A stretch of 64,000 nucleotides of DNA from Pseudomonadota bacterium (GCA_043797085.1 JAZDQA010000009.1:1-64000); one strand, 5' to 3'; shown: positions 22,327 to 35,848, counted from the first letter of the stretch. Program-made: numbers and translations. The notes: generated by a model not told the origin, from the letters alone.

Positions 22327-22404
22327 CGGGGCGTAGCTCAGTATGGTTAGAGTACTTGCTTTGGGAGCAAGGGGCCGGAGGTTCGAGTCCTCTCGCCCCG
22401 ACCA
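22327..22404 (+). tRNA. tRNA-Pro (TGG)
   Basis: Cloverleaf; anticodon arm CTTGC-TTTGGGA-GCAAG; GTTCGAG; CCA end. Confidence 0.96.
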
Positions 22405-22439
22405 CGTTATTTTAAATTTCAATCAAAAAACTTTTGTAT

Positions 22440-22517
22440 GGTGGAATTAGCTCAGTTGGTTAGAGCACTGGTTTGTGGTGCCGGGGGTCACGGGTTCGAG
22501 CCCCGTATTCCACCCCA
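22440..22517 (+). tRNA. tRNA-His (GTG)
   Basis: Arm CTGGT-TTGTGGT-GCCGG; encoded G-1 and C discriminator; CCA. Confidence 0.96.
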
Positions 22518-22573
22518 TATATTTGTTTGTTTATTACACTTTTGGCATTTTAGATGTTTTAGAAGGACTTTGT

Positions 22574-22650
22574 GCGTTCGTAGCTCAATTGGATAGAGTA
22601 ACGGTCTTCGGAACCGTAGGTTATAGGTTCGAACCCTATCGGGCGCACCA
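22574..22650 (+). tRNA. tRNA-Arg (TCG)
   Basis: Arm ACGGT-CTTCGGA-ACCGT; CCA. Confidence 0.95.
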
Positions 22651-22660
22651 TATAGTACTC

Positions 22661-22737
22661 GCGTCCTTAGCTCAGTTGGATAGAGCAATGCCCTTCTAAG
22701 GCATCGGTCAGAGGTTCGAATCCTCTAGGGCGTACCA
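22661..22737 (+). tRNA. tRNA-Arg (TCT)
   Basis: Arm ATGCC-CTTCTAA-GGCAT; CCA. Confidence 0.96.
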
Positions 22738-22752
22738 CCTTAGATTTTATGT

Positions 22753-22836
22753 GCGGATGTGGTGAAATGGTAGACACGCCAGACTTAGGATCTGGTGCCG
22801 CAAGGTGTAGGAGTTCAAGTCTCCTCATCCGCACCA
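22753..22836 (+). tRNA. tRNA-Leu (TAG)
   Basis: Arm CCAGA-CTTAGGA-TCTGG; long variable arm; CCA. Confidence 0.96.
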
Positions 22837-22984: not shown

Positions 22985-23734
22985 TTAATAAGACTCTAAC
23001 CTACTTAGCAACTCTTCGACAAAGCGATGGTAATCTTTTAGTCCACGGGAACGCTCGGGCTGATCGATTATCGGATTTCCTCCTTCAAACTGATTCGAAA
23101 GTTTGACATCAATCCCTATGGGAGAAAAAAACTTTTCCTCTCCAAACTGTATTTTTACTTTGGCAATCGCGTCACGATGTTCAGGGATATGAGTATTGAC
23201 CATGACCGGAAGAATCCCTACGTTTGGAGTGCGTTGTCCATTGTACGAAGCGTTTTGATAGATGGCTCGTACCATTTGCCCCACTGCGACCACACCCAAA
23301 TGATGAGGGACGAAAGGGATAACGACTGCATCAGCAACTTCAAGTGCATTTTTGAGCAGTGCATCAAATGTGGGTGGGGTGTCAATCACTACGTAATCGA
23401 AAAACTCATGAATCATTTCATTGGAGAACCTGTTTCGTAACACTCCCCGCAAATCGCCATTTTCGTACACATCGAAAAATTCGGTGGCAGGAGAGAGTGT
23501 CAGTTGCTCAAACACAGTCGGAACGAAAGTCTCACTGAGCGTTTTACCAAAAAAAATCGAATGTGCTCCATTGTCAAGCGATCCCATACACCCTACGCCC
23601 ATCGACGCATGAGCTTGGGTATCGAAGTCAATAAGCAATACAGAGCCTCGTTTAGCAAGCTCACACGCGAGATTAACCGCCGTCGTCGTTTTTGCTGAGC
23701 CACCTTTACGATTGGATACAACTATGGTCTTCAT
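22985..23734 (-). CDS. ParA-family ATPase (chemotaxis-associated, ParC/PpfA-like)
   Basis: Deviant Walker A KGGSAKTT, DFDTQA, IDTPP; last gene of the che operon; no parB next to it. Confidence 0.88.
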   Translation of the reverse strand: MKTIVVSNRKGGSAKTTTAVNLACELAKRGSVLLIDFDTQAHASMGVGCMGSLDNGAHSIFFGKTLSETFVPTVFEQLTLSPATEFFDVYENGDLRGVLRNRFSNEMIHEFFDYVVIDTPPTFDALLKNALEVADAVVIPFVPHHLGVVAVGQMVRAIYQNASYNGQRTPNVGILPVMVNTHIPEHRDAIAKVKIQFGEEKFFSPIGIDVKLSNQFEGGNPIIDQPERSRGLKDYHRFVEELLSRLESY

Positions 23735-24513
23735 GCCACCTCTTCATTCGGAAGAGTAATCGAATCGATAACCACTACGAGTGATTTTTTGTACTCTACC
23801 ACACCGCGCGTATGTAAACATGCCCCTACTTTGACGTTATGGGCATAGGGCTTTATCTGTTCCTCATCCAATGCAATAATATCTCGGATTGCGTCTACTT
23901 TGATCGCAAAAAAACCATTGCCGCTTCGATAAATAAGAAGTTTTTGTATTTGAGAAGAAATTTCGGTACTTTTTCGTACCATTTCACCCAAAAGACGCAT
24001 TGTATCCACGAAAGCACCATTGATGATCTCTTTGTTGTAGCATTCCAGTGCAGCTTCGGTATCGCCCGTGCATTGCTGTAATAACTTTGCACCTGTTTCA
24101 TGTAACTGCGAATGAATGGGTATAAGTGCGCGAATGATAGCGAGCACTTCAGGATCATTCGCTTGATACGAATAAATCCATTTACCCAATCGGCATAAAT
24201 GGGGATCAAGTGCAAGCTTAAAAGGGACACCCTCGCGCAACGATGTTTCCAATGCTACTACCCAATTTTGATGGTCCTTTATTACTTGATTAAACAATTC
24301 CAGCATCTGATCTTCATGCGTTTGCAAATTGGTCATTTTTCGAAAATTAATCACCTTTGCCGTAAGGTTTTGATAGGTCATCAATCCATCAATAAATGGA
24401 TGGGCATTGGGAATAGGGGTCAGATGCGGAACCTGATCGATACGATCGATATTGCCGACTTCTAACGCATAATCGCTCACGCCAATCGTAAAAATAATGT
24501 AATCAGATGTCAT
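23731..24513 (-). CDS. CheW-like adaptor with inserted CZB domain
   Basis: CheW N-half (YIIFTIG..TPIPNAHPFIDGLM), CZB (DHQNW..CRLGKW..HSQLH), CheW C-half (FAIKVDAIRDI..GVVEY). Confidence 0.88.
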   Translation of the reverse strand: MTSDYIIFTIGVSDYALEVGNIDRIDQVPHLTPIPNAHPFIDGLMTYQNLTAKVINFRKMTNLQTHEDQMLELFNQVIKDHQNWVVALETSLREGVPFKLALDPHLCRLGKWIYSYQANDPEVLAIIRALIPIHSQLHETGAKLLQQCTGDTEAALECYNKEIINGAFVDTMRLLGEMVRKSTEISSQIQKLLIYRSGNGFFAIKVDAIRDIIALDEEQIKPYAHNVKVGACLHTRGVVEYKKSLVVVIDSITLPNEEVA

Positions 24514-24522
24514 TTCAATCCT

Positions 24523-24792
24523 TTATGCGCAATGGGCTTCGGTCACGTCAAAGCCTTCACATATCTTTTGATACAACTTCTCATACATTCCGAATCGGTA
24601 TTGGGCTACATACAGTTTTTTGTATGCCAAAACAAGCTGCAAGATCCCTAAATGGAGATCATCACACTCACTAAAATCAAAAAGAATCGGATCAGGAGAG
24701 GAGAGCTGTAAATAATCACGCAATGCTCCAATCTCATCTTCGTACGTTACACCACTGAAAATTACAGTATGATTTTCCATCAAAATCGACAT
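24523..24792 (-). CDS. Small STAS-like protein
   Basis: 89 aa; DFSECDDLHLGILQLVLA resembles the STAS D-x-S...LQLL motif typical of che operons. Confidence 0.6.
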   Translation of the reverse strand: MSILMENHTVIFSGVTYEDEIGALRDYLQLSSPDPILFDFSECDDLHLGILQLVLAYKKLYVAQYRFGMYEKLYQKICEGFDVTEAHCA

Positions 24793-25568
24793 TACACTAT
24801 CCCCTTTACCGGCATTGAGACCGATTTTATAACATTAACCAGTCGCTCACCCATCTCAACAACCCCTGACGTTTCTAGAAAATCTCCCAGACTATTGCTT
24901 GAATCAACCGACTTGATCATCGAAGGTTCAATACGGGCCATGTCATCAATCGCATCCACCTTGATGGCAAAAAAGCTCTCTCCTCCTTGGTAGATCAACA
25001 GTTTTTGCATGTGTCCTGAAATGGATTGCGACATTTCTCCCATTTTATGAATTTCTCCCAGTGTCATTGAAAAAATAGAGACAATCTCACGGCGGGCCTG
25101 ATCCAAAGCCTCTTCAGGATTGGTTTCACGCAATGCCAATATTTCACGTCCACGATCATGAAGTTTTGAATGCGTAGGTCGAAGAACTTTTAAAATAGCC
25201 AAAACATCCGCATCATGAGTACTGTAGCTATCCAGCCATTTTCCAAGACGACAAGCATGCGAATCCGTGGTAAGGGCAAAACCGCTATTATTCTCCATGG
25301 CTGCCATGAATGTATCAACCCATATTTTATGATCATTCCCAACACGTTGAAACAGGGCATGAACTTCTTCTTCGTGTGCCGTCATTGCTATCATTTTACG
25401 AAAATTCACCACTTTCGTCACACGCTTTTCATACGACATCATTCCATCAATACAAGGGTGTGCATTAGGGATTGGGGTGACACTTGGCATCTGAATAATT
25501 CGCTCTACATTCTCCACATTGAGTGCATAAAAATTCGTTCCAACCGTAAAAACAATATAATCTTCCAT
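24792..25568 (-). CDS. CheW-like adaptor with inserted CZB domain (paralogue)
   Basis: Same split architecture; CZB DHKIW..CRLGKW..HSKLH. Confidence 0.88.
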   Translation of the reverse strand: MEDYIVFTVGTNFYALNVENVERIIQMPSVTPIPNAHPCIDGMMSYEKRVTKVVNFRKMIAMTAHEEEVHALFQRVGNDHKIWVDTFMAAMENNSGFALTTDSHACRLGKWLDSYSTHDADVLAILKVLRPTHSKLHDRGREILALRETNPEEALDQARREIVSIFSMTLGEIHKMGEMSQSISGHMQKLLIYQGGESFFAIKVDAIDDMARIEPSMIKSVDSSNSLGDFLETSGVVEMGERLVNVIKSVSMPVKGIV

Positions 25569-25578
25569 TTTTTATCCT

Positions 25579-28350
25579 TTAGCTTGCATGTTGGTAATTG
25601 GTTTGAAGTGCGTGTGAGAGCTGCAACATCCCCAGCGGATCAATCGCCATGATAATTTGCCCATTTCCAAGTAATGCCGTCCCGCTGAAAATCGGATGGT
25701 GTTCCATAATCCCCTCAAGCGGTTTTTGTACGACATCAATCTGCCCAATCAGCGCATTGACGACAACGGCTAACAAATTGCCCTTGATATTGAGCACCAC
25801 AACCGGAAGTGTTTTACCGATCAATATCTTTTCATCGAGCATTTGACGCGTAAACAGCAGAGGTATAACCTCTCCGCGTAAATAAATAAATGGCTCATTT
25901 TGTAAATATTCAATCTGTGCGGATTCGATTTTGACCGTTTCAGAGACACTGTCCATCGGGAATCCATAGTGAACACCGTTCATCATCACATGAAGCAGCG
26001 ACGTTACGGCAAGAGATACGGGGATAGAGAGATAAATCGTCGTCCCTTGATTAGGGACGGTTTTGATACGAATAGTGCCGCCAAATCCTTCGATTGATTT
26101 GCGCACTACATCCATCCCTACGCCGCGTCCGCTGTACTCACTGATCGTCTCAGCCGTAGAAAGTCCCGGCAGCATCACCAGTGCCGCTTTTTCATCATCG
26201 CTCATTGCATCGATTTGATCCAACGTTAAAAGGTCTTTTTCCAATACTTTTTGAACAACACGATCCACATTGATACCCGCTCCGTCATCACGGATTTCGA
26301 CGATAATTTTGTCACTTTGAGGATAGGCATTGAGGGTAATTTGACCCTCCGGACTTTTACCCTTTTGGATACGAATGTCTGGAAGTTCGATTCCGTGGTC
26401 GAGAGAATTTCGCATAATATGAATCATCGGATCGGCAAGCATCTCGATCATGTTTTTATCGAGTTTCGTCTCTCCTCCATCCATCGTTAACGTCACTTTT
26501 TTGTTAAGATTTTTCGAAATATCCCGTACCAGTTTGGGGTAACGGTCAAATACATAGGAGATAGGGAGCATCCGCATCGACATAATCAAATCTTGGAGCT
26601 GTTCGGTGAGACGGTTAATAAAGGTATATTTTTCCATTATCGCCCGTTTTGTCCCCTCGTGAGTCATCGCATGTACACCGTCCGCCAAATAGGGAAGAGA
26701 GTTTTTAGCCACGAGCAGCTCGCCCACTACATTCATCAAATTATCGATGGACTCCTGATCGACCTTCACGGTTTTGCCGATAACCCCTTTTTTGGCTCCT
26801 GCGTTTTGAACTTCCGGTTCAAGCTTTGGCGCTTCGACGACAACAGCCGATTTGACCTCTGCTGATGGTTTTACCGTAACGATATTGACAGGGGTTAGCA
26901 GTACAATTTCTACTTCAGGAATAGTGAGCTCCATCATACTCAAAATCTCTTCGTCTATCTCATTTAAGCTCTCTGTTTGAGTATCAGCACAAACTTCATC
27001 CGGAGAGTTTAAGCCTAATTCTTGACGTAACCATCTCATCACCTCATCAGCTGAAGCATTTTGCGCAGGAAGGCTCTCTAAATGTTCGCTAAGAGCACTT
27101 AATATCCCCTTGACTCGAATAAGGGCACTCTCATCTTCCACACTTTCGAGCGTTTGAAGCTGTTGCAGAAGAATGGCTTGCAGACGTTGAAGCGCAACCT
27201 CATTCAGCGGTTCTTTTGCTACGATATTTATCGGTTGAGCAGGTTCATCTGCACTCTCTACCGATAATTCTGCCGTGTACGCATACACATGCCCCTGCGG
27301 CAACTTGGCAAAAAAGGATTTCAACTCTTTTAAATCACGATCTGCCACACATCCAATAACATCAAGGGCACGATTGAGCTGTCCGCTTTGAATCGTATCT
27401 TTACCGATCAGGGGTAACGTATTGATGATACGCGCAGAGATTTCGGAAGGATTGCTCGCATCAATTTGCACCGCGCACTCACGACTTAGCTCTTTTAGAA
27501 CATCCAACGTATGTCCGCGCTCTCCCTCATCCACTCCAAGCAATGTCACAATATCCAATAGCATAAATTCGAGCTCATCACTAAAGTTAAACAAAGCATC
27601 GCTAATCTCTTCATACGTAGCATAGACAAACGCAACCATCGAGAGTTTCAGCAATAATCCATCCGGATCATCGAATCCGCTAAGCGCCGAAGTAGCTGCA
27701 TTGGTACTCATGCAAGAGTAAACACCAAGCACTTTGTCGGATATTAGCGAGAGTGTATAAACGGGATCGTTTCCATATACCATGCACGACTCATCAATAT
27801 CAAAAACGACCGCATACAACTGTTCGTTCGAACATACCTCTTCATCAATAGCACCAAGAGCAAAGGGGATTTTCTGTTCAAAGGAGCGCAAGAACGGCAT
27901 GGGGAGATTCACAATACGGTTCACATCCCTTACGCTTCTAAAAGGACATGTCCATGTATACACTTCAATGGTTTTACCCATCAAACCGCTGAGTTCTTGG
28001 GCTATTTCATCAATTCGTTCTTCATCAGCGCTGACAATCGCCCCGCTCTCTTCTGCCGCTTCGATCAGATTTATCACCTCATCAAATGCGTTATACAGAG
28101 ACTCAACCATTCTCTCTTGAAAATCAATTTTACCGGATCGAAGCATATCCAATAAGTCTTCCGCGTGGTGGGTGATGCGCTTAACCGCTTCAAATCCGAC
28201 AATCCCTGAGCCACCTTTGAGCGTATGCGCGGCACGAAAAACGGCATTAAGCAATTCAGGATCGTCCCCGCCGATTTTGTCAATGTTTTGATCGATAAAA
28301 GCTAAATTTTCTCTGGCTTCAAGTAAAAATTGTTCGAGTAGCGCATCCAT
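25579..28350 (-). CDS. cheA: Chemotaxis histidine kinase CheA
   Basis: HPt FRAAHTLKG, dimerisation domain, RNSLDHGIE, DDGAG, SGRGVGMDVV, C-terminal CheW domain. Confidence 0.97.
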   Translation of the reverse strand: MDALLEQFLLEARENLAFIDQNIDKIGGDDPELLNAVFRAAHTLKGGSGIVGFEAVKRITHHAEDLLDMLRSGKIDFQERMVESLYNAFDEVINLIEAAEESGAIVSADEERIDEIAQELSGLMGKTIEVYTWTCPFRSVRDVNRIVNLPMPFLRSFEQKIPFALGAIDEEVCSNEQLYAVVFDIDESCMVYGNDPVYTLSLISDKVLGVYSCMSTNAATSALSGFDDPDGLLLKLSMVAFVYATYEEISDALFNFSDELEFMLLDIVTLLGVDEGERGHTLDVLKELSRECAVQIDASNPSEISARIINTLPLIGKDTIQSGQLNRALDVIGCVADRDLKELKSFFAKLPQGHVYAYTAELSVESADEPAQPINIVAKEPLNEVALQRLQAILLQQLQTLESVEDESALIRVKGILSALSEHLESLPAQNASADEVMRWLRQELGLNSPDEVCADTQTESLNEIDEEILSMMELTIPEVEIVLLTPVNIVTVKPSAEVKSAVVVEAPKLEPEVQNAGAKKGVIGKTVKVDQESIDNLMNVVGELLVAKNSLPYLADGVHAMTHEGTKRAIMEKYTFINRLTEQLQDLIMSMRMLPISYVFDRYPKLVRDISKNLNKKVTLTMDGGETKLDKNMIEMLADPMIHIMRNSLDHGIELPDIRIQKGKSPEGQITLNAYPQSDKIIVEIRDDGAGINVDRVVQKVLEKDLLTLDQIDAMSDDEKAALVMLPGLSTAETISEYSGRGVGMDVVRKSIEGFGGTIRIKTVPNQGTTIYLSIPVSLAVTSLLHVMMNGVHYGFPMDSVSETVKIESAQIEYLQNEPFIYLRGEVIPLLFTRQMLDEKILIGKTLPVVVLNIKGNLLAVVVNALIGQIDVVQKPLEGIMEHHPIFSGTALLGNGQIIMAIDPLGMLQLSHALQTNYQHAS

Positions 28351-28361
28351 TTGTGTTTTCC

Positions 28362-28733
28362 TTAGAGTGTAGCATTGAGCAATAACTGAAGATAGCCTTT
28401 GAGGGCATCGGGCTTGATCGGTTTGGTCTCAAAAAGGCTTGCCCCCACCTTGAATGCTTCGATTTTATCCGTGCCAGCTTCTTGTGTTGTAATCATAATG
28501 ACAGGCGTGAGCTTATGCGCGGGCTGCTTGCGAAGTTCACTCACAAAAGAGTATCCGTCCATCACCGGCATGTTGACATCCACGAGATAGAGGTTCACCT
28601 CATTATCCAATGTCTTCTCGAGCGCTTCCATCCCATTTTCGGCTTCAAGGACATCCACCCCTAAATCCCGTAAAATCGAGCCGTGATAACTTCGTACTGT
28701 TTTTGAATCATCGACTACCATAACTGTTGCCAT
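28362..28733 (-). CDS. cheY: CheY-like response regulator
   Basis: Single receiver domain: VDDS, DVNMP, ITT, KP. Confidence 0.9.
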   Translation of the reverse strand: MATVMVVDDSKTVRSYHGSILRDLGVDVLEAENGMEALEKTLDNEVNLYLVDVNMPVMDGYSFVSELRKQPAHKLTPVIMITTQEAGTDKIEAFKVGASLFETKPIKPDALKGYLQLLLNATL

Positions 28734-28742
28734 CTTCTTCTC

Positions 28743-29132
28743 CTAAAAAAACTCTATACCGTCATCATCATGATGCTGTATTTTTCCGCCAAAAGCTGCA
28801 TGCTTCTCTTGTGCCCGATCGAGCGCTGATGTTAACTTGCTGTGCATTTTTTCTAAATTTTCTGCTGCTAGTGAATCGTCTTTACTAAATATGCGTGTAA
28901 AATACTGCAAATGTTTTTGCACATTTTCAATCGCCTCGATGGTTGCCCCCAGCTGTTGCGCAATAATATCTTGATACTGCATTACTTCCAGCGTTTCGTC
29001 ATCCAAAATCAAGCCCTGTTTTTCGATAAAACGAACTACTTGAAGTTGAGCTTTTTGAGTCATTTCAATCGTCTCACCCTCTACGGATTTGATATGTTCA
29101 AGGAGACCGTCCAATGTATGTAAAAACTGCAT
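28743..29132 (-). CDS. Hypothetical helical protein, possible CheZ-like phosphatase
   Basis: MQYQDIIAQQL contains a DxxxQ motif; acidic/aromatic tail DDDGIEFF; lies between two cheY genes. Confidence 0.55.
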   Translation of the reverse strand: MQFLHTLDGLLEHIKSVEGETIEMTQKAQLQVVRFIEKQGLILDDETLEVMQYQDIIAQQLGATIEAIENVQKHLQYFTRIFSKDDSLAAENLEKMHSKLTSALDRAQEKHAAFGGKIQHHDDDGIEFF

Positions 29133-29135
29133 CAG

Positions 29136-29507
29136 TTAGGGAAGCCGTAATACTCTAGCAATCGCTTGCTTGAGCTGTGCCGGATTAAAAGGTTTGACAA
29201 TCCATCCTGTCAATCCCAATGCTTTGCCTTGTTGTTTTAACTCATCACGTGTTTCAGTCGTGAGCATCAATACGGGAGTACGTGCCGTTGCAGAATGAGC
29301 ACGAATCCCTTGCAAAAACTCAAATCCGTTCATCACCGGCATATTCATATCGGTAATAATCAAATCGGGAGTCATTCCCCCTTGAATTTCGCGAAGTGCC
29401 TCGGGTGCATTCAAATATTGCTTGACCGTAATGGGCATACTGTCCGTCACCATCCGAGTGGAAGCAAGAGCGGTTTCACTGTCGTCTATAAATAGTACTA
29501 ATGGCAT
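29136..29507 (-). CDS. cheY: CheY-like response regulator
   Basis: IDDS, TDMNMP, LTTE, GWIVKPF. Confidence 0.9.
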   Translation of the reverse strand: MPLVLFIDDSETALASTRMVTDSMPITVKQYLNAPEALREIQGGMTPDLIITDMNMPVMNGFEFLQGIRAHSATARTPVLMLTTETRDELKQQGKALGLTGWIVKPFNPAQLKQAIARVLRLP

Positions 29508-33421: not shown

Positions 33422-35308
33422 TTATCCTTGTTGAAGTTCATCTGCCATAACAGCCAACTCTTCAACCCCATCAGAGATGTGACTCACTGTTTCGATAATC
33501 AATTCGCTGGCTTTTCGTGACTCTTGTGCATTTCGGGCAGAGAGTTCAACCGCTTTTTGGATTTCGCTGATTCCGATGAGCCCTTGATTAAGCCCTTCAA
33601 TATTTTGATCATTAATGGATTTTAGACCCGTAAAACGATCCAACAAATCAATCAGCATCGTTGTGATCTTGTCAATCTCATGAATCAATGCCGTAATTTG
33701 CTCTTTTTCACCCTCTTGATTGACAAGAAGTTTCAACCATTCAGTACGGACGCTATCGATTTCAGCGTTCATCGATTCGATGGTATCGTTGATTTTCTCC
33801 GTGTTGGATTCAGAATCTTTGGCAAGATTACGGATATCGGCACTAACGACTGCGAATCCTTTACCAAACTCTCCCGCACGCGCCGCTTCGATAGAACCGC
33901 TGATAGCGAGCATGTTGAGCTGAATGATGCTGTTGCTGATACTGCCTACCGTCTTATCAACATTACGCGTCTCTTTGACAATCACATTAAGTTCACTGCT
34001 TGCGCTTCCGCCCTCATTCATAGAGGCGGTGAAATCATTACTGATACCGATCATTTGCCCTTTGACCTCTGCAAACGATACTTTAAGCAAATCAAAATTT
34101 CGACGTGCGATTTCGATAAGCTTGGAGATATCTCTGGATGCACTTACGCCGCTTTCAAACATCTCTTTATTTGTAATTGCGCTTTGGTTGGTGGATTGAG
34201 ATGCGGCTTCGATTTGGTTGAGCCCTGCGGTTACCTCTTTGAGAGAGCTTTGAATATCTTCCATCGATGAACTGATCGCATCCGCAGATGCTGCAATCTC
34301 CTCTGCTGATTTCATCGTATCCGTTGAGTATTTGAGTTCTTCGGAAAGATTGTTGAGTTCTTTGATGTCTTCTTCGGTCTGGATAAGTGAATTACTTTGC
34401 ATTTCAATGCTGTTAAGGGTTTTTTCAACCGAACGTGCGATTTCGCTTGACGCATCGGCGATGTCTTTAGAACCGTCATTGATAAGAGCAATCGAGTGGC
34501 TTAGGCTTTGGGTATACCCGCTCATACTGCGTGCCGCTTCAACAGAATAGACGGCAATTTTAGTCAGTTCTTCCATTTTGAGACTAAGGGCAGATCCGCG
34601 TCCGCCCGTTTGCTCGATAATATTGGTTGTCGCATTGATACTTTTGATGATCCCATCAATGCTTTCTTGAATTTTATTCACAAGACGGGAGATAAAATCA
34701 GCATTTTTTTCGGATTCTCCTGCAAGCGCACGCGTCTCATCCGCGACCACCGCAAACCCTTTTCCATGTTCTTTGGCACGGCTGGCTTCGATGGCGGCAT
34801 TGAGCGCTAACAAATTTGTCTGATCGGCAATTTTCGCGATAAATCCAACCGCTTCACCGATATTTTCGGAAGATACTTTTAACTCTTCGGATTTTTTAGA
34901 CGACGTTTTAGCGACGTTCACAGCTTTCGCCATTCGTTCGACCGAAGTGTTAATCGTACCGACAGCACTCATAATGTTTTCACCCGCAGCCAATGTTGAA
35001 CTGATTACGGTGTCAATACTGCTTGTCATGCGTCCGATATTGGAACTGATGGAGCGGACATTTTTGAGTGCTTGCTCACTTGCACCGCTGTTTTCTTCTG
35101 CAGCCGTTGCGATTTGCTCCATCGAACTTTTGAGTTGTTCGATAGCACTGACGCTCTCTTGCGCGTTGTCCAAAATCGTTGTTGCTACTCCCGCGATACT
35201 CTCAGAAATTTGTTGTTGTTTTGCCAATGTACGCTGGCGTCGTTTATCCGGTCCTACACTCCCGCCCGAAGCTACTGGTGAACTCTCTGCTCGTCTTACT
35301 AGTGCCAT
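33422..35308 (-). CDS. Cytoplasmic MCP with two signalling domains (DosM-like)
   Basis: Two hairpin tips: QTNLLALNAAIEASRAKEHGKGFAVVA and QLNMLAISGSIEAARAGEFGKGFAVVS. No TM segment. Confidence 0.92.
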   Translation of the reverse strand: MALVRRAESSPVASGGSVGPDKRRQRTLAKQQQISESIAGVATTILDNAQESVSAIEQLKSSMEQIATAAEENSGASEQALKNVRSISSNIGRMTSSIDTVISSTLAAGENIMSAVGTINTSVERMAKAVNVAKTSSKKSEELKVSSENIGEAVGFIAKIADQTNLLALNAAIEASRAKEHGKGFAVVADETRALAGESEKNADFISRLVNKIQESIDGIIKSINATTNIIEQTGGRGSALSLKMEELTKIAVYSVEAARSMSGYTQSLSHSIALINDGSKDIADASSEIARSVEKTLNSIEMQSNSLIQTEEDIKELNNLSEELKYSTDTMKSAEEIAASADAISSSMEDIQSSLKEVTAGLNQIEAASQSTNQSAITNKEMFESGVSASRDISKLIEIARRNFDLLKVSFAEVKGQMIGISNDFTASMNEGGSASSELNVIVKETRNVDKTVGSISNSIIQLNMLAISGSIEAARAGEFGKGFAVVSADIRNLAKDSESNTEKINDTIESMNAEIDSVRTEWLKLLVNQEGEKEQITALIHEIDKITTMLIDLLDRFTGLKSINDQNIEGLNQGLIGISEIQKAVELSARNAQESRKASELIIETVSHISDGVEELAVMADELQQG

Positions 35309-35419: not shown

Positions 35420-35848
35420 TTAATCAAGCGTCGCATATAGCGCTTCTGATTTTTTGATGTCGTCACGTGAAGGTTTGATACGGATAGAAACATATTTAAC
35501 GTTTCCATTTTTATCGATTGAGCGTAAAACAGTGGAATACACCCAATAAAAGCCGCCGCCTTTACGGGCATTTTTAACCAATCCGGTCCAAAAACCTTTG
35601 GCTTGAACATCATCCCATAATGATTTAAATGCGGCGCGAGGCATATCAGAATGGCGAACAACGTTATGAGCTTGCCCAATCAAATCAATTGCTTTCCATC
35701 CCGCAACTTTTCCAAAGGAATCATTTGCATAGAGAATAATCCCTTTTTCATCGGTTTCTGACAGTAAATACAAATCGTCGTATAGCACTTCTCCATCCTC
35801 TAAAAATGTTAGCCCTTCAACTTCAAGTGTATCATCCGTTTTTACCAT
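35420..35848 (-). CDS. Stand-alone Aer/CetB-type PAS protein
   Basis: SETDEKGIILYAN, HNVVRHSDMP, LW..W.GLVKN..GGFYWV: Aer-type PAS motifs. Confidence 0.88.
   Translation of the reverse strand: MVKTDDTLEVEGLTFLEDGEVLYDDLYLLSETDEKGIILYANDSFGKVAGWKAIDLIGQAHNVVRHSDMPRAAFKSLWDDVQAKGFWTGLVKNARKGGGFYWVYSTVLRSIDKNGNVKYVSIRIKPSRDDIKKSEALYATLD

Follow-up and report, generated by a model that had tools for sequence, protein, structure and literature searches.

A stretch of 64,000 nucleotides from a Pseudomonadota bacterium (GCA_043797085.1, JAZDQA010000009.1:1-64000; here called the window) encodes two CheW-type adaptor proteins, W1 and W2, each of which is split by a zinc-binding CZB domain. In both, the two flanking halves form one CheW fold and the CZB bundle is nested in one of its loops. 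From its sequence the operon is assigned to the F9 (DosM/CheW3) class of chemosensory systems of a Sulfuricurvum-like bacterium; named homologues at 87% identity are Sulfuricurvum proteins, and the genome is 96% complete. We propose, with a probability of about one half, that W1 and W2 are accessory zinc or redox modulators of the F9 kinase, which join the baseplate and whose zinc site tunes CheA.

24792..25568, minus strand: cheW-CZB gene of W2, 258 amino acids (aa), N-half, CZB and C-half, with Arg23 and Glu47 at the places of Escherichia coli Glu38 and Arg62
25008..25376, minus strand: CZB four-helix insert of W2, about residues 65-187, with zinc ligands H80, C106, H133 and H137 and the pair D79/R107
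23731..24513, minus strand: cheW-CZB gene of W1, 260 aa, paralogue of W2 (44% identity over 252 aa), with Arg24 and Gln48 at the bridge positions
23950..24318, minus strand: CZB insert of W1, about residues 66-188, with zinc ligands H81, C107, H134 and H138 and the pair D80/R108

A CheW Fold Split by a CZB Bundle

The first-pass annotation of the window had read both proteins as CheW N-half, CZB and CheW C-half, had assigned a full His/Cys/His/His set to both inserts, and had named profile searches and structure prediction as checks. Both open reading frames are present, and both Pfam families were found above cut-off in each protein: CheW (PF01584; cut-off 23.5) with 60 bits in W1 and 63.7 bits in W2, where the best stretch spans only model positions 2-67 and 2-65, respectively, and CZB (PF13682; gathering cut-off 29.4) with 40.4 bits (residues 81-144) and 43.3 bits (residues 80-144). 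The four ligands are complete in both copies and stand in the motifs DHQNW, CRLGKW and HSQLH of W1 and DHKIW, CRLGKW and HSKLH of W2.

Among 662 candidates, 83 homologues were retained at E 1e-10 or better, W1 and W2 counted in. The insert is present in 51 of them; the other 32 are natural CheW proteins of 143-168 aa with no more than a short loop between the two halves. One of these insert-free orthologues, P0079, aligns end to end with the solved CheW proteins of Thermotoga maritima and E. coli. Via this alignment the insertion point maps to the loop after the short helix of CheW, at about E. coli residues 76-86.

An AlphaFold model of W2 alone, built from an alignment of 58 rows, had a predicted local distance difference test score (pLDDT) of 93.8 and a predicted template modelling score (pTM) of 0.86. 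It matches the two-subdomain β-barrel of CheW 2QDL (Z 16.9, root-mean-square deviation (rmsd) 2.3, 140 of 146 residues aligned), and its residues 65-182 match the CZB domain of DgcZ, 3T9O (Z 13.2, rmsd 2.7, 116 aligned); because other helical bundles score like 3T9O, the assignment of the insert to CZB is based on its sequence. Helices 65-93 and 151-187, which open and close the bundle, run without a break into the CheW core at subdomain 2. The confident model and the insert-free orthologues agree in showing the halves as a foldable CheW around the CZB. Chance or misassembly as the source of the split was ruled out by the Pfam scores above cut-off, the recurrence of the gene in 107 of 301 family genomes and the natural insert-free orthologues.

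The Putative Zinc Site

Like the CZB domains of Helicobacter pylori TlpD and E. coli DgcZ, the inserts of W1 and W2 are four-helix bundles, and like that of TlpD they have an Asp-Arg pair and a Trp. According to a preprint, TlpD would hold the kinase on when zinc is bound and off in the apo state, oxidation of the Cys freeing the zinc; the Asp-Arg pair together with the Trp braces the site (10.64898/2026.01.16.699579). Pair and Trp are retained in W1 and W2, D79 and R107 of W2 corresponding to D314 and R341 of TlpD, and the His-Cys-His-His spacing is 26/27/4 in W1 and W2 as compared with 25/28/4 in TlpD. The ligands are complete in all 50-51 close homologues scored. Arg follows the Cys in 17 of 58 rows, all 17 of which have Asp or Glu at the partner place. 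The systems differ in placement: in TlpD and DgcZ the CZB sits at a terminus and has a coiled coil or a cyclase as its target, whereas in W1 and W2 it is tied into CheW at both ends.

A conference report proposed CZB as a redox sensor that acts through its zinc (PMC12422006), which would fit a free-living microaerophile better than hypochlorous acid (HOCl), one of the signals named in the first-pass annotation. Cytoplasmic redox state or zinc availability is the likelier signal; HOCl, a product of neutrophils, is unlikely to be one for a free-living lineage.

The Salt Bridge and the Receptor Groove

In E. coli CheW a salt bridge between Glu38 and Arg62 keeps the receptor and kinase sites in register; the R62A protein binds both partners yet signals badly, and the CheW of T. 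maritima is described as being without the Glu of the bridge (PMC3828127). The F7-type hallmark of Glu38-Arg62 plus Gly63 is absent from the split proteins, W2 having Arg/Glu and W1 Arg/Gln at the pair, with Gly63 replaced. Of the 53 family rows with an insert, 43 have R/E at the pair, 7 have R/Q, and R/D, R/K and E/R occur once each. The 80 loci from other phyla gave 77 scored rows; 63 of these have E/R, and the second residue is Arg in every one of the 77. The rows are kin and not independent, and the swap may be one event. The family thus appears to have swapped the bridge from Glu/Arg to Arg/Glu with retention of the charge pair, a compensated change that would suggest a working coupler. 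Since the first-place Arg is also kept in 32 of 32 insert-free orthologues, the swap is not tied to regulation by the CZB.

The kinase-side motif of the split CheW proteins is divergent. On the other side, I5, V18, V21 and I24 of P0079 align to L14, V27, I30 and V33 of T. maritima, I24 being invariant in 58 rows, and the same hydrophobic positions align with E. coli CheW. We take these to be the residues of the receptor-binding groove.

The Operon

The operon runs in the order PAS, dosM, cheW3, cheB, HEAT, cheR, cheY, 129-aa gene, cheY, cheA, W2, STAS, W1, parA, with intergenic gaps of at most 12 bases downstream of dosM. The F9 hallmarks are present: a DosM with two signalling domains and a triple CheW, in which Pfam finds three PF01584 stretches.

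35420..35848, minus strand: stand-alone Aer-type PAS protein, 142 aa, 111 bases upstream of dosM
33422..35308, minus strand: DosM, F9 signature, with two signalling domains, no sensor and no membrane helix
32046..33416, minus strand: triple CheW (CheW3), F9 signature, without a CZB insert in this genome
29520..32049, minus strand: cheR, HEAT-repeat protein and cheB
28362..29507, minus strand: cheY, a 129-aa protein without family (weak CheZ-like lead) and cheY
28743-29132, minus strand: the 129-aa protein between the cheY genes
25579..28350, minus strand: cheA, 923 aa, with Hpt, dimerisation, HATPase and P5 domains
24523..24792, minus strand: STAS-fold protein, 89 aa, between W2 and W1
22985..23734, minus strand: ParA-family ATPase, the last operon gene here

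The gene overlaps described in the first-pass annotation exist between W2 and the STAS gene (one base, TAATG) and between W1 and parA (four bases, ATGA); the STAS gene and W1, which it had also taken to be coupled, are separated by a gap of 9 bases.

The 89-aa protein between the two adaptors has no Pfam match, and its orthologue in locus L072 matches STAS_2 at E 9e-4, below cut-off. Its model has a STAS fold (SpoIIAA 1H4X, Z 10.1, rmsd 1.9, 80 aligned), so that model and structure search bear out the STAS-like gene of the first-pass annotation. Among 41 aligned orthologues H47 is conserved in 41, C43 in 40 and C88 in 39; D45 is near-invariant too. The four residues, found also in operons without any CZB, possibly form a metal or redox site. 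The Ser that is phosphorylated in anti-sigma antagonists is presumably lacking. CheS of S. meliloti binds CheA, according to a review.

Retention and Loss of the Insert

A search of 301 genomes of the family found the W gene, split or insert-free, in 107, DosM in 106 and both in 105. Thus 105 of the 107 gene-bearing genomes also have DosM, which is the co-occurrence with F9 clusters that the first-pass annotation had wished to see surveyed. In a phylum-wide sample matches occurred in 2 of 366 genomes outside the family.

From the 107 genomes 60 loci were picked by hand according to contig size, spread and insert state, many of them insert-free on purpose. F9 systems make up 57, each with cheA, STAS and parA, so that W, STAS and parA stand together in 57 of 57; the remaining three are L061, L075 and L077. 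Inserts are exclusively intact in 27 of the F9 loci (10 of them with two copies), and two loci have one intact and one deleted insert. Some insert-free genes still retain residues from both ends of the insert, which would point to deletion; eroded inserts keep their length. For the insert the ratio of nonsynonymous to synonymous substitution rates (dN/dS) was 0.06-0.10, for the CheW halves 0.04-0.11 (7 pairwise comparisons each, with three or four close relatives). Insert and halves are both under purifying selection in this lineage.

In other genera of the family (L062-L066) there is a second, independent-looking tandem duplication with the order W-W-STAS.

Other Candidate Inputs

It had been argued from the sequence that the operon's only methyl-accepting chemotaxis protein (MCP) has no sensor domain and that signals may hence enter through the adaptors. 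The premise is right, DosM consisting of two signalling domains without sensor or membrane helix, and Pfam finds no HAMP match in it. The conclusion does not follow, because DosM is described as a scaffold that needs, or mixes with, other cytoplasmic receptors (PMC7534058; PMC9321776), and because a PAS gene and soluble CZB receptors exist; the insert, moreover, was repeatedly lost.

The PAS gene directly upstream of dosM has the PAS domain of E. coli Aer as its best solved match (E 2e-26). It is strongly conserved and precedes 52 of 52 full-length dosM genes in the picked loci (one copy is frameshifted). The Aer-type PAS protein is a candidate for a conserved redox input and dedicated partner of DosM; stand-alone PAS partners of receptors have been described as CetB. 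Five further receptors encoded in the genome, two soluble and three membrane-bound, have a CZB motif at the C-terminus. Recent capture of the insert from such a local receptor was unsupported: in a tree of 108 CZB columns, which has only five receptor comparators, the five receptor CZBs branch together with a support of 100, and the 54 CZBs that are inserted in CheW lie outside this branch.

Wider Distribution

When 1.84 billion representatives were searched with a profile, the best 150 matches (148 new ids) included split proteins that stand alone and triple CheWs whose domain 2 carries the insert in the equivalent loop. The latter build was found in 27 of the 148, many with eroded ligands and one with a second remnant in domain 3. 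In metagenome loci of this type a double-domain receptor lies directly upstream in 5 of 10, and a partial receptor or none, mostly at contig ends, was found in the other 5. In the trees of the CZB and of the CheW halves the F9 split family is placed with CheW3 domain 2 and not with the CAFGKW type, at support values in the Shimodaira-Hasegawa-like approximate likelihood ratio test (SH-aLRT) of only 85-90. Protein P0114 has CZB inserts in CheW3 domains 2 and 3 and P0161 in domain 3; the CheW loop appears to accept the insert repeatedly. The "W4" of Thermosulfuriphilus ammonigenes (S6 Table of PMC9321776) may be a CheW3 with a split middle domain, a build seen in P0145 of Thermosulfuriphilus sp. 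P0207, of 1028 aa, has five tandem CZB domains with the full ligand set in each.

A motif scan of GTDB yielded at least 548 confirmed stretches among at least 598, in many phyla. The ligands are complete in 76 of 77 rows from other phyla. Of the best 80 stretches 18 are near an MCP and 5 near cheA; none of the 80 is near DosM, CheW3, parA or STAS, the profiles having been built from the Sulfuricurvum-like family, so that distant STAS genes may be missed.

In two loci, L061:9208-16052 and L181:6626-14445, no CheW besides the split CheW-CZB was found in a cheA-dosM-cheB-cheR cluster; the split protein stands at the place of CheW3 and carries the canonical Glu/Arg pair. These clusters are the best genomic sign that a split CheW-CZB can serve as coupler. 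They resemble the "DosMW1" clusters of Caldicellulosiruptor (S6 Table, PMC9321776). In L075 and L077 the split protein is encoded beside a 371-aa receptor, outside any che operon.

Proposed Function

W1 and W2 would enter the CheA/CheW3 baseplate of a cytoplasmic F9 array on the tips of DosM, with zinc bound at the 3His/1Cys site of the nested CZB. Oxidation of the Cys or a fall in free zinc would loosen the bundle, as in TlpD and DgcZ, and the loosening, transmitted by the two linking helices, would reach the contact between CheW and CheA and so tune the F9 CheA. As an input the CZB would be optional, next to the invariant PAS protein of the Aer type and the soluble receptors, which would explain why relatives drop the insert. 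Sensing through adaptors in the baseplate is plausible. A more specific version, which we put forward tentatively and rather doubt, is that the CZB nested in the CheW loop, whether in a gene of its own as here, in domain 2 of CheW3 as in other phyla or in the sole CheW of some DosM clusters, controls F9 CheA without a conformational change of the receptor and, together with the dedicated Aer-type PAS partner that DosM would have, senses redox state over two channels in microaerophilic sulfur oxidisers.

The proposal draws on the confident fold with its rigid helical coupling of bundle and CheW, the complete ligand set with the Asp-Arg pair and Trp of TlpD, the low dN/dS of both parts, the aligned receptor groove, the retained charge pair, the co-occurrence with DosM, the L061 and L181 clusters, the equivalent insert in CheW3 domain 2 and, as precedents, CheWS and the redox role proposed for CZB. 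Several findings weigh against a modulating role of W1 and W2. Opposite the Arg of the bridge W1 has Gln and not Glu, as in 7 of 53 rows, and Gly63 is gone in most rows. No intact insert is left in 28 of the 57 F9 loci (10 with eroded ligands, 17 deleted, 1 with both), these loci being hand-picked, and the 83-row tree on 128 CheW columns, from a quick search with many open forks, requires at least 7 changes between present and deleted and at least 12 between intact and lost. CheW3 alone can build F9 baseplates with DosM (PMC9321776), and other sensors are at hand in the PAS protein and the soluble CZB receptors. A literature search in titles and abstract starts, with most subscription papers outside its range, found no binding or signalling study of any CheW-CZB.

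What W1 and W2 might do instead is to link the array to ParA for positioning or segregation in the manner of ParP, the CZB gating assembly or ParA binding and not kinase output. ParP, too, is a CheW-like fold encoded beside a ParA-like gene (PMC5706961; PMC7534058), W, STAS and parA are never apart in the 57 F9 loci, W1 overlaps parA in the window, and the kinase-side motif is divergent. W1 and W2, however, lack both a domain for ParC binding at the N-terminus and a long linker, since the CheW fold of W2 begins at residue 2, and parA is near none of the 80 split loci of other phyla and absent from the L061 and L181 clusters; we consider such a role unlikely. About as unlikely is that the insert is a passenger, binding zinc structurally or tolerated on its way out, with W1 and W2 as plain extra adaptors and the PAS protein and soluble receptors as the sensors. 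Clean deletion and ligand erosion have recurred while the operon stayed intact, eroded inserts keeping their length, the PAS gene lies upstream of all 52 dosM genes, and the genome has its two soluble CZB receptors; yet in this lineage selection constrains the insert no less than the CheW halves, the ligands are complete in nearly all rows from other phyla, and both copies keep every ligand at 44% identity.

A strong form of the reading in the first-pass annotation, that the adaptors are the main signal entry of the array, sense zinc or HOCl and act directly on CheA, draws on the sensorless DosM, the match of CRLGKW and the Asp-Arg pair to TlpD and the two copies in this operon. We hold it to be improbable, since about half of the picked F9 loci are without an intact insert whereas the PAS gene is never missing, and since neutrophil HOCl is an unlikely signal for a free-living lineage. 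Least probable of all is a zinc-regulated decoy, a charge-swapped CheW that binds receptor tips or CheA, couples poorly and dampens or dissolves the array. The loss of the canonical Arg62-Gly63 motif, the Gln of W1, the behaviour of the R62A protein, which binds yet signals badly (PMC3828127), and the coupling already supplied by CheW3 would fit it; the swap restores the charge pair in most rows, however, and the insert-free orthologues all keep the Arg.

Relation to Known Systems

W1 and W2 belong to a catalogued class in a published operon type, and the idea of baseplate sensing is already in print. CheW-CZB proteins, which like W1 and W2 combine CheW and CZB with a 3His/1Cys site in one chain, make up 1.4% of 10,140 CZB sequences and are most abundant in Clostridia (Perkins et al., 2021, PMC8262984); Muok et al. 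(2023, PMC10653840) list them as known and propose sensing through the CheW-fused CZB. The CheW-CZB subgroup is described as having Ala or a variable residue after the Cys (PMC8262984), like the split CAFGKW proteins of many phyla, and the catalogued class therefore probably is this nested architecture, to judge by the motif. The class of Perkins et al. may already include the nested topology or relatives of W1 and W2, although the text available of PMC8262984 does not state an insertion. The family of W1 and W2 differs from the class in the Arg that follows the Cys in this lineage, the swapped Arg/Glu bridge and the fixed place in an F9 operon.

The F9 class (Vibrio cholerae cluster I; Mo et al., 2022, PMC9321776) has the same DosM, triple CheW, B, HEAT, R, Y and A. 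Its S6 Table gives the order DosM-W3-B-.-R-Y-.-Y-A-W1 for Sulfuricurvum sp. 17-40-25 and Sulfurimonas gotlandica. There the gene after cheA is named a single CheW, CZB is mentioned just for two DosM homologues, and the order is without the PAS, STAS, parA and second W genes, all of which are present here. Additions to this are the charge swap, the repeated loss of the insert, the invariant PAS gene and the clusters with the split protein as sole CheW.

The view that CheW is normally passive, from which the first-pass annotation started, is dated: CheWS of Treponema denticola is a characterised sensor fused to CheW, mediates a chemotactic response and has been modelled near CheA P4/P5 (PMC10653840). 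As described there, its sensor is a CheR-like S-adenosylmethionine (SAM) domain at the C-terminus, whereas W1 and W2 have a zinc bundle nested in a loop. ParP of the ParP/ParC system of Vibrio shares with W1 and W2 the CheW-like fold encoded beside a ParA-like ATPase; W1 and W2 differ in being without its N-terminal ParC-binding domain and proline-rich linker. ParP is closer to CheA P5 (PMC5706961), whereas the best structural matches of the W2 model are CheW proteins, ahead of CheA P5.

The input of F9 arrays is described as a question still open (PMC9321776; PMC7534058). The locus is a compact, soluble test case, with close orthologues that have intact, eroded or deleted inserts as natural controls. 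If zinc or oxidation alters CheA through the adaptors, this would be the second receptor-independent mechanism of baseplate sensing after CheWS. For the input of F9 systems the CZB inserts may count for less than the PAS gene, which the first-pass annotation did not mention.

Further Observations in the Window

NCBIfam gave nothing above cut-off for W1, W2, the STAS protein or the 129-aa protein. For the last the Atlas leads to CheZ are weak (0.78-0.79); its stretch QYQDIIAQQ resembles what we take to be the active-site motif of CheZ. Scans for promoters and terminators found no excess over shuffled sequences (25 vs. 29.9 and 15 vs. 11.9, respectively).

A receiver-domain protein of about 445 aa, whose C-terminal part is unassigned, is encoded in 44 of the 57 F9 loci, mostly right after parA (e.g., L031:17184-18515; the equivalent place in the window is at about 22900), and tblastn found none in this 96% complete genome. 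It may be the output of the F9 system.

In one groundwater RNA library contigs match parts of the operon, nearly all at 99% identity or more, although their source may be DNA and not transcripts; W2 is covered in part, one piece spans the junction between the PAS gene and dosM, and W1 is left nearly uncovered. Directly downstream of parA five tRNA genes (Pro, His, Arg, Arg, Leu) lie on the plus strand at 22327-22836.

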